From NCBI RefSeq assembly GCF_055900595.2, contig NZ_CM148325.1: a DNA stretch of 64,000 bases, one strand, 5' to 3'. Position numbers: made by a program. Shown here piece by piece: positions 6,001 through 9,000 of the stretch. Position 1 is the stretch's first letter, and each line of letters opens with the position of its first letter.

Positions 6001-9000
6001 CGTCCCAACAATGCGACCTTTTCCGCCCGCCAGACTCGTACCGCCCAGAACCACCGCAGCAATAGCATCCAGCTCATAGCCAGTTCCCGCAGTGGGTTGT
6101 GCGGAGGAGAGACGCGCCACTTCAATGATCCCGGCCAGCGATGCCAGCAGACCACAAAGAGAATAGACGATGATTTTGATTTTATTGACGTTGATACCAG
6201 AAAGGCGCGTAGCCGCTTCGTTGCCGCCCAGCGCGTAGATGTAACGCCCCAAACGTGTGTGATGCAGCATGTACCAGGCCGCGAGGAACACAATCCCCAT
6301 GATCCAGACTGGCGTCGGTACGCCCAGCGGACGACCAATACCAAACCAGCCGAACAGATCGGCGTTCTCAGTAAAGCCGGTATTCACTGGGCTACCGTTG
6401 GTATAAACCATGGTCACGCCGCGCAGTAAAAGCATCATAACCAGCGTAGCGATAAACGCCTGGACGCGACCTTTCGCAACAATCACCCCGGTTACCGCAC
6501 CAATAGCGGCACCTAACGCGAGAGCGGCAGCGACAGCCACCAGCGCATTGACTTCAATGCCGACGATAGATGCAGCCACTGCGCCAGTCAGCGCCAATAG
6601 AGAACCTACCGACAAGTCGATGCCCGACGTCAGGATCACCAGCGTCATCCCGACCGCCATAATGGCGTTCACCGAGGTTTGCTGGAGAATATTGAATAAG
6701 TTATTGATGGTGAAAAAGTTCGGGCTTAATGTCGAGACAATCGCGATCAGCACCAGCAGAGCGATAAGCGATTTCTGCTCCATCAGCCATGCTTTCGTGA
6801 AATAACGGCGACCAGAGACAGTCTGGGTTGTCATTTTTTTACTCCTGATTCACGCGATTAAGCTTGCCCACAGCGGCAGCCATTAACACTTCCTGGGTGG
6901 CCCGCTCACGAGTAAATTCCCCGCTGAGATGCCCTTCATGCATGACGATGATGCGATCGCTCATGCCTAATACTTCTGGCATCTCCGATGACACCAGAAT
7001 GATGCTCAAGCCATCGGCTTTGAACTGGTTAATCAGTTGATAGATCTCTTTTTTCGCACCAACATCTACGCCACGGGTAGGTTCATCAAGAATCAACACT
7101 TTGGGGCGTGTCATCAGTCCACGGGCAATCGCCACTTTTTGCTGATTGCCACCGGAGAGCAAACCAATTGCCTGTTCCATCGACGGCGTTTTCACATTAA
7201 ACAGACGAATAAAATCACTCACTGCCTGCTGTTCATCGGCATGCTTCAAACTGCCGCCAGTACGGCTAAAGTAACGCAGCGCAGTCAGCGACATATTCTC
7301 TTTGACTGACATACCCAGCACTAAACCGTCACGTTTGCGGTCTTCGGAGATATACACAATGCCGTTTGCCAGGCCATCCTGCGGTGAACGGGTAACGACT
7401 TCATGCCCATCCAGAGTGACGTAACCGCTGGTACGCGGCAGTGCGCCGTAGAGCACTTTCATCAGTTCGGTACGCCCCGCGCCCATCAAACCAGAGACGC
7501 CAAGAATTTCACCTTTGCGTAAGGTAAATGAAACATCATTAACGCCAGGTCCGCAGAGATTATCGACTTTCAGGCGGATATCGCCCGGCGCTTTGTCCAG
7601 GTGTGGATATTGATCTTCCAGCTTGCGGCCCACCATCATCTCAATCAGCGAATCTTCGGTCAGTGATGCCACTTCGCGCTCAGCAATAAATTGCCCGTCA
7701 CGAAAAACAGTAACGTCATCGCAAATTTCGAAGATTTCTTTCATGCGGTGGGAGATATAGACAATACCGCGGCCTTGCGATTTCAGCTCGCGGATGACGC
7801 GGAACAGGGATTCGGTTTCGGTATCGGTCAGCGCATCGGTCGGTTCATCCATAATGATGACTTTCGACTCAAAGCTCAGCACTTTGGCGATTTCAACCAT
7901 TTGCTGGTCACCGATGGAAAGATCGCCCACCAGCTTGTCACTTTTAAAACGCAGGTTAAGTTTAGCCAGCAATTTATCCGCTTCGGCATACATGGTTTTC
8001 CAGTCAATTTTGCCAAAGCGATTAACAAACTCACGACCGAGGAAAATGTTTTCGGCAATGGTTAACTGCGGGATCAGGTTCAGTTCCTGATGGATGATTC
8101 CAATGCCGGCTTCCTGGGAGGATTTCGGCCCGGTAAACGTTGTTTCTTTCCCCAGCCATAAAAGCGTACCGGCATCACGCGTATAGATACCAGTAAGCAC
8201 TTTCATCATGGTGGATTTACCCGCGCCGTTTTCACCCACCAGCGCCATTACACGCCCCGGATAGACATTTAACGCGGCGCCCGAGAGGGCTTTTACGCCC
8301 GGAAAGGCTTTATCAATGCCTTTAAGCTGTAGTAATGCTTCCATGACGGCCTCAGAACGTCACGCCAGCACAGAGAATGATATTCGCATACGGAGAACAT
8401 TCTCCGCTGCGAATTACCGCCTGACTTTCTGCGGTTTGTTGTTTGAATTGTTCATGCGTGGTGTAACGAATTTCAATGGTATTTCCCTGGTGTTTTTGCA
8501 GCTGCTCAAGGTGAGTGAGCAACGTTTCGTGGAGTTGCGGATTATGTTGTTTGATCTCTTCCGCGATAATGGCAGCCTCGACCTGCATTTCATTTGTGAC
8601 GACGCCCAGCACCTGCATAAAAGAAGGTACACCCTGGGTTAATGCCATATCGATACGCGTTGTACTTTTGGGGATGGGTAAACCAGCATCACACACCACC
8701 AACGTATCGGTATGTCCCAGACGGGAGATCACCGAAGAAATATCAGAATTAAGAACGGTGCCTTTTTTCATTTTTTTCTCCATCAGCGAAACGTTTCGCT
8801 GACCCGCAGTTTAATCCTGACTGAGTTGGGAAAACCATCGTGACGTTACGGAAATGTGATCAACATCGAAACGTTTTACATGGTGATTAACCATGAAAAC
8901 AAAAACGCCCCCTTATGGAGAAAGGAGGCGTCTGGCGTTAAATTTCGACCTGAGTACCCAGTTCGATAACCCTGTTTGGCGGGATTTCAAATTGATCCGG

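Follow-up and report, generated by a model that had tools for sequence, protein, structure and literature searches.

The stretch of Escherichia coli DNA examined here raises a question about the control of the ribose operon, rbsDACBKR: why is the core of its operator palindrome repeated farther upstream in the same control region? Regulation of rbs by RbsR, acting at the operator rbsO, and by CRP is textbook knowledge. The stretch, referred to throughout as the window, comprises 64,000 nucleotides of contig NZ_CM148325.1 (assembly GCF_055900595.2), and the control region of the operon is the intergenic segment between kup and rbsD. The palindrome nearest to rbsD (O1) is rbsO and adds nothing new. 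The useful result is the second copy (O2), which appears to be the trace of a conserved repressor site. It is read as the Escherichia version of an ancestral second RbsR-type operator, fused to a CRP site so that repressor and activator would compete, which has decayed in Escherichia. The probability that the two elements are correctly described in this way is estimated to be about 0.7.

The primary operator

The first-pass annotation of the window had described a perfect 20-bp palindrome abutting the start region of rbsD and had assigned it to RbsR. The palindrome, TCAGCGAAACGTTTCGCTGA, is read directly at 8783..8802 on the minus strand (centre 8792.5) and ends 11 bp before the rbsD ATG. Its central CG and its half-site, AGCGAAAC, fit the form of a LacI/GalR-type operator. 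A 30-mer, GTGGGTCAGCGAAACGTTTCGCTGATGGAG, designated 'rbsO', has been co-crystallised with RbsR (bioRxiv 10.1101/2025.04.02.646877). The window departs from the crystallised 30-mer only at the second base, which lies outside the palindrome, and the palindrome itself is identical. Three bases upstream of the palindrome the window has C and K-12 has T.

The window carries its own rbsR gene (2903..3895, minus strand), recognised as an intact open reading frame (ORF) and by its match in the PDB. It encodes the cognate LacI/GalR-family repressor of 330 residues, and over 329 residues the product matches the 'Ribose operon repressor' of PDB entries 9ny7 and 9ny8 (E = 8e-220). The next-best structural relatives were PurR structures. 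The comparison set consisted of 80 rbsD loci, one per species, from approximately 18 named genera of the Enterobacteriaceae, with 81 distinct promoters. The operator 16-mer, AGCGAAACGTTTCGCT, is unchanged in 80 of these 81 promoters, in 19 of 19 genera and in Proteus, and within the 64 kb of the window this core has no other match with fewer than three mismatches. Since the palindrome is the same as that of the crystallised rbsO, the cognate rbsR is present in the window and the 16-mer is invariant across genera, the palindrome at 8783-8802 is the established RbsR operator, as the first-pass annotation had proposed. Ribose-sensitive binding by RbsR has been reported for both E. coli and Serratia. 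The only one of the 80 loci with an altered 16-mer is that of Citrobacter amalonaticus, which reads GGCGAAACGTTTCGCT.

The position of the operator relative to the promoter was deduced from a putative -10 hexamer, TAAACT (8808..8813, minus strand), which was recognised in the sequence and conforms to TAnACT, a motif conserved across genera with a mean identity of 0.84. The transcription start is inferred to lie at approximately 8801/8800, 7 nt after this hexamer. If transcription begins at 8801, O1 spans the start with its centre at about +9.5, and the CRP-type site and O2 described below are centred at -61.5 and -71.5, respectively. In the absence of ribose, the RbsR dimer binds rbsO, and it would block RNA polymerase there because O1 covers the putative start.

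As the operator would occupy approximately +1 to +19, the transcript should begin with a hairpin, an automatic consequence of the palindrome. The predicted 5' end of the rbsD mRNA can form an 8-bp stem with a 4-nt loop from the operator sequence, and this structure might affect mRNA stability. A structured RNA was also considered as the primary meaning of the palindrome and was rejected, the 53-nt fold (-11.8 kcal/mol, z = -1.78) being no better than those of shuffled sequences. A search of the region against Rfam gave no match.

The upstream copy in the window

The core of the palindrome had also been said to recur about 65 bp further upstream. The repeat is present, with CATCGAAACGTTTTAC located at 8864-8879 and the 10-mer CGAAACGTTT, common to the copy and the operator, at 8867-8876. 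The distance was off, however, as the gap between the quoted sequences is 61 bp and the centres of the two elements are 80 bp apart (8792.5 to 8872.5). In the register of the operator, O2 is TGTAAAACGTTTCGAT at 8865..8880 on the minus strand, with its centre at 8872.5. The 10-mer has three matches in the 64 kb, two on the strands of the palindrome and one at 8867-8876, compared to an expected number of 0.30, and only 1 of 100 shuffled sequences reached three.

Of the 16 positions of the operator core, O2 agrees at 12. The promoter-proximal half agrees fully over the six core positions (ATCGAAAC, read from the outside to the centre), whereas the distal half is degenerate (TGTAAAAC). Expressed in terms of CGAAAC, the sequence of core positions 1-6, the proximal half has no mismatches and the distal half has two (TAAAAC). 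At these two positions no other presumed RbsR site varies. When a full operator is defined as one with CGAAAC in both half-sites, the O2 of the window does not qualify, whereas that of 75 of the 81 enterobacterial promoters, and that of Proteus, does.

The 51-bp stretch that contains O2 and the adjoining CRP-type site is nearly monomorphic in E. coli, being present in 5,346 of 5,426 genomes. It is identical to that of the window in just 18 E. coli genomes and differs by one base in approximately 5,300. At position 8866, immediately after TTTCGA, the window has T (TCGATGTTGA) and K-12 has G, and the one-base differences are consistent with a T/G site at this position. Because T or C is found here in other genera, the common E. 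coli allele, with G, looks derived.

Conservation of the upstream element

Lack of conservation of the second site, which the first-pass annotation had named as the observation that would count against it, was not found. An element centred on AAACGTTT is present 78-80 bp upstream of the operator in 80 of 80 rbsD loci and in Proteus mirabilis, and a chance repeat was rejected as the origin of the upstream copy on the strength of this conservation. The related genera have a complete palindrome of the operator type here, CGAAACGTTTCG, and an invariant CRP-type site is fused to it. Outside Escherichia it reads (G/T/A)CGAAACGTTTCGA, with both half-sites intact. The most common form, GCGAAACGTTTCGA, was found in 71 of the 81 promoters and is identical to the operator core at 13 of 14 positions; a perfect palindrome, TCGAAACGTTTCGA, occurs in four, and the remaining form, GTAAAACGTTTCGA, is confined to six promoters of Escherichia, including that of the window. 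The E. albertii sequence, too short for the alignment, was checked separately and has the same degenerate form. Thus, all seven Escherichia sequences (E. coli, E. albertii, E. whittamii and the cryptic clades) carry the degenerate GTAAAACG. The change amounts to two transitions, GCG to GTA, which spoil the distal half. Salmonella and Citrobacter are taken as the nearest relatives of Escherichia and, because both have the intact form, the Escherichia form is considered to be derived.

Outgroup loci were taken from chromosomes filed in a plasmid collection (Proteus, Vibrio, Photobacterium and Aeromonas). A large search with the RbsD protein had returned only Enterobacteriaceae, at 82% identity or higher, and no further taxa. 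In Proteus mirabilis, a member of the Morganellaceae, ACGAAACGTTTCGA is followed by N6 and TCACA and lies 78 bp upstream of a perfect operator. The layout is the same, which indicates that the arrangement is older than the Enterobacteriaceae. Vibrio and Photobacterium have ATCGAAACGTTTCGAT upstream of rbsD at other spacings and without a fused CRP-type site, and the Aeromonas rbsD locus has no such operator motif. Outside Escherichia, all presumed RbsR sites, including the rbs operators of Vibrio and Photobacterium, have CGAAAC at core positions 1-6 in both halves.

This last observation bears on the suggestion that O2 serves a different LacI/GalR-family regulator, such as PurR or Cra, which would likewise recognise palindromes centred on AAACGTTT. 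The core is common to several members of the family, and PurR is the closest paralogue of RbsR (PMC4052901). Outside Escherichia, however, the CG at positions 6 and 5 that distinguishes RbsR sites is exactly as in rbsO in both halves, the consensus sequences of the other regulators having been taken from general knowledge for this comparison. Recognition of O2 by such a regulator is considered highly improbable.

Mean column identities were calculated over 19 genera, including Proteus. Neutral intergenic columns are saturated, with values of 0.49 upstream of O2 and 0.59-0.61 in the promoter spacers. The operator has a mean identity of 1.00. Within the composite element, the value is 0.90 for the 7 bases of O2 that lie outside the CRP 22-mer, 0.95 for the 9 bases common to O2 and the CRP site, and 0.70 for the variable centre of the CRP site.

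Several of the loci deserve separate mention. Vibrio campbellii has two perfect ATCGAAACGTTTCGAT operators 127 bp apart, with centres approximately 212 and 85 bp upstream of rbsD, and V. tritonius has a full site and a half-degenerate site 32 bp apart. Multiple rbs operators therefore recur outside the Enterobacterales, in different geometries. A contig labelled Chryseobacterium sp. 18061 (L064) carries a Citrobacter-type rbsD and promoter nearly identical to those of locus L063, and is probably mislabelled or contaminated.

The overlapping CRP-type site

The putative class I CRP site is a 22-mer at 8852..8873 on the minus strand, centred on 8862.5. The corresponding promoter coordinate, approximately -61.5, is where class I sites are normally centred. 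The core of the site, read on the plus strand, consists of TGTGA (8855-8859), N6 and TCGAA (8866-8870). Read in the direction of transcription, TTCGA-N6-TCACA has its centre 10 bp downstream of the O2 centre, and the two elements overlap by 9 bp. One sequence (TTTCGA) forms both the distal half of the CRP site and the proximal half of O2, and the common bases would lie at approximately -69 to -65. All 81 promoters carry GATCACA and TTTCGA unchanged, with free variation at the four intervening bases, and Proteus has TTCGA-N6-TCACA. CRP-cAMP (cAMP, cyclic AMP) activates the rbsD promoter, and in a comparison of sugar promoters rbsD was reported to require more CRP activity than any of the other five (PMC4304618). 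A weak distal CRP half-site would fit this higher requirement.

Farther downstream, a conserved TGGTTTT block occupies the -35 region (8831..8837, minus strand), with a mean identity of 0.97 and five of its seven positions invariant in the 19 genera. The block is a poor match to TTGACA, and a generic sigma-70 promoter scan found no consensus pair. The missing pair is uninformative, because an activator-dependent promoter is expected to have none.

If the upstream copy were only the distal half of the CRP site together with its flank, the likeness to the operator would be functionless in any species. The GATCACA right half is indeed a consensus CRP half-site and invariant, its position suits class I activation of a promoter known to respond to CRP-cAMP, and E. 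coli is left with a single RbsR half-site. A CRP site alone, however, fails to explain why GCGAAAC, the 7 bases past the 22-mer, is nearly invariant (0.90 vs. a background of 0.49). Nor does it account for the weak half being held at TTTCGA instead of drifting among CRP-compatible variants, or for the perfect 12-bp palindrome, equal to the operator core, in the 75 promoters and Proteus. This explanation is considered unlikely.

Furthermore, conservation is asymmetric about the CRP centre. Within the flanks of the 22-mer the mean identity is 1.00 on the distal side vs. 0.77-0.79 on the proximal side, and beyond the 22-mer it is 0.88 vs. 0.72-0.75. In none of the 81 promoters does the distal half of the CRP site drift toward TGTGA; all of them keep TTTCGA, the RbsR half-site. 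The asymmetry, the frozen TTTCGA and the presence of CGAAAC in both halves together argue for a dual constraint, in which a second factor recognises an rbsO-like palindrome. Judged from the sequence, RbsR would be by far the likeliest candidate for the second factor.

RbsR and the spacing of the two sites

The possibility of a functional auxiliary operator in E. coli, one cooperating with rbsO through a DNA loop in the manner of lac O3 and O1, was also evaluated. The layout is lac-like, with a primary operator just past the start, a weaker operator upstream and a CRP site at -61.5, and the spacing is kept at 78-80 bp. The tetramerisation helix of LacI is carried by its C-terminal extension. 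The RbsR of the window aligns to residues 5-310 only of the 360 residues of LacI and lacks this extension, and RbsR has been reported to be a dimer (bioRxiv 10.1101/2025.04.02.646877). The spacing corresponds to 7.4-7.6 turns at 10.5 bp per turn, a non-integral number that places the sites on opposite faces of the helix, and it varies by +/-1 bp among genera. Promoter geometry alone would explain its retention, and two core positions have been lost from the E. coli O2. Looping is quite improbable because the repressor is a dimer without the LacI C-terminal extension and the sites are a variable 7.4-7.6 turns apart. Lac-type looping was accordingly rejected as the main mechanism.

A model of repressor-activator competition

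The preferred reading, a second RbsR-type operator fused to a CRP site, suggests the following model. In most of the Enterobacterales the ancestral arrangement would act as a double lock, in which polymerase is blocked at O1 and the activator is blocked at O2. TTTCGA would be a half-site for both proteins, the proximal one in O2 and the weak distal one for CRP, and RbsR at O2 and cAMP-CRP should exclude each other because the bases of this half-site are shared. Ribose would free both O1 and O2, and CRP-cAMP would then be able to activate transcription. In Escherichia, damage to the distal half of O2 by the two transitions would have left an element that is mainly a CRP site with one RbsR half-site. 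Weak RbsR binding is expected at the E. coli O2, and its surviving role is most probably that of a CRP site.

The first-pass annotation had offered an auxiliary operator or a CRP/RbsR composite as the meaning of the copy. This interpretation appears sound for the ancestry of the element and for the related genera, as far as it can be read from sequence, but in E. coli, where the distal half has two core substitutions, the copy is better regarded as a weakened remnant. That a double lock is conserved across the Enterobacterales, and that its second lock was specifically lost in the genus Escherichia via two point changes, is advanced tentatively, at a little less than an even chance.

Several observations weigh against the interpretation of O2 as a decayed operator. 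The loci are related by descent and the sequence counts overstate the independent support, although the 19 genera with saturated flanks lessen this concern. The CRP-type site matches 8 of 10 core positions (the consensus right half is GATCACATTT), and such matches number 24 in the window vs. 27 expected. As the consensus match alone is at the chance level, the CRP assignment rests on position and conservation. The coordinates -61.5 and -71.5 depend on the start deduced from the -10 hexamer. The promoter-proximal flank of the CRP site is itself moderately conserved (0.72-0.79), so that the asymmetry is real and undramatic. Finally, the classical footprint in E. coli is said to have revealed a single operator.

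Published data on the second site were also sought. For the RbsR regulog 1156 of RegPrecise (Enterobacteriales; Ravcheev et al. 2014), the totals in the supplement to PMC4052901 are 17 sites, 11 regulons and 12 genomes. These totals suggest that the second rbsD site is perhaps already catalogued there in some genomes. In E. coli K-12, genomic SELEX (systematic evolution of ligands by exponential enrichment) gave just five peaks for RbsR (PMC4797297), and sites 80 bp apart are beyond its resolution. A literature search for footprints, electrophoretic mobility shift assays or chromatin immunoprecipitation of RbsR on O2, which did not extend to Mauzy and Hermodson 1992, Shimada 2013 and Laikova 2001, found none. 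A text search of the literature for the O2 sequence and the K-12 CRP-site sequence retrieved no relevant paper, and a search for genome-wide RbsR binding data retrieved nothing usable.

The promoter has an ordinary architecture with a modest comparative twist, a conserved and probably composite RbsR/CRP site that is lost in Escherichia. If the double lock exists, the E. coli textbook model of one operator and CRP would be unrepresentative of its relatives, and Salmonella, Klebsiella and Enterobacter would repress rbs more tightly than E. coli does, with better insulation from CRP. If confirmed, the composite site would illustrate cleanly, in a natural system, how repressor and activator can compete via a shared half-site, and how a classic sugar operon has been rewired in one lineage. 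Confirmation would also caution against carrying the E. coli promoter map over to Salmonella or Klebsiella. The result is of relevance to users of RbsR and rbsO as parts in synthetic biology.

The locus and neighbouring features

The window was recognised as E. coli. A 301-bp query around the site matches 5,411 of 5,426 complete E. coli genomes, with the flanks annotated as kup and rbsD. The gene order on the minus strand is kup, rbsD, rbsA, rbsC, rbsB, rbsK and rbsR. The kup ORF (8938-10806, minus strand) was identified by an ORF scan and agrees with the RefSeq annotation. Its intrinsic terminator (8903..8933, minus strand), found by a terminator scan as a 12-pair stem followed by a T run, is the upstream limit of the rbs control region. 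The first gene of the operon, rbsD (8352..8771, minus strand), is an ORF annotated in RefSeq as D-ribose pyranase with the same start. Its ATG (8771-8769) and its Shine-Dalgarno sequence, GGAG (8781-8778), were both read from the minus strand. In the direction of transcription, the elements are thus arranged in the order kup terminator (8933-8903), GTAAAACGTTTCGAT, GATCACATTT, TGGTTTT, TAAACT, TCAGCGAAACGTTTCGCTGA, GGAG and the rbsD ATG.

A second in-frame ATG at 8781-8783 (minus strand), within the operator, would extend RbsD by four residues (MEKK); RefSeq uses the ATG downstream of it, at 8771. The inverted repeat CATGGT-TAATC-ACCATG (8879-8895, minus strand) lies between the kup terminator and O2 and touches the distal edge of O2. 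Its conservation fails even within Escherichia.

Other features of the window lie farther from the control region. The 5' part of a 16S rRNA gene, truncated by the window edge, occupies 1-314 (minus strand), and two plus-strand ORFs (795-1487 and 1510-2937) lie between it and rbsR. The tnaC leader peptide (56745-56819) and tnaA (55109-56539), both on the minus strand, are preceded by a perfect CRP consensus, TGTGAATCGAATCACA, at 56895-56910, which is presumably the known CRP site of the tna promoter. A 492-residue ORF (57205-58683, plus strand) adjoins the tna promoter.

Comparison with known systems

The closest counterpart of the locus is the E. coli rbsO-RbsR complex itself (PDB 9ny7 and 9ny8). 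The window has the same operator, with no difference in the palindrome, together with rbsR. The gal operators OE and OI resemble the arrangement in that two operators for a dimeric LacI/GalR-family repressor flank a CRP-activated promoter. They differ in that the GalR dimers loop with HU over 113 bp in phase and in that OE shares no half-site with the CRP site, whereas no evidence of looping was found at rbs.

The lac control region is similar in that a primary operator lies just past the start, a weaker one lies upstream and a class I CRP site falls between the two, under a repressor of the same family. The LacI tetramer, however, loops between O1 and O3, the latter adjacent to the CAP site at -61.5. 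At rbs the repressor is dimeric and O2 overlaps the CRP site by 9 bp with a shared half-site, so that competition is predicted rather than looping. A further parallel is provided by CytR and CRP at deoP2, cdd and related promoters, where a LacI/GalR-family repressor neutralises activation by CRP and does not only block polymerase. CytR binds between two CRP dimers and does so cooperatively, in contrast to RbsR, which at O2 of the rbs promoter is predicted to exclude CRP through occupation of part of the CRP site.

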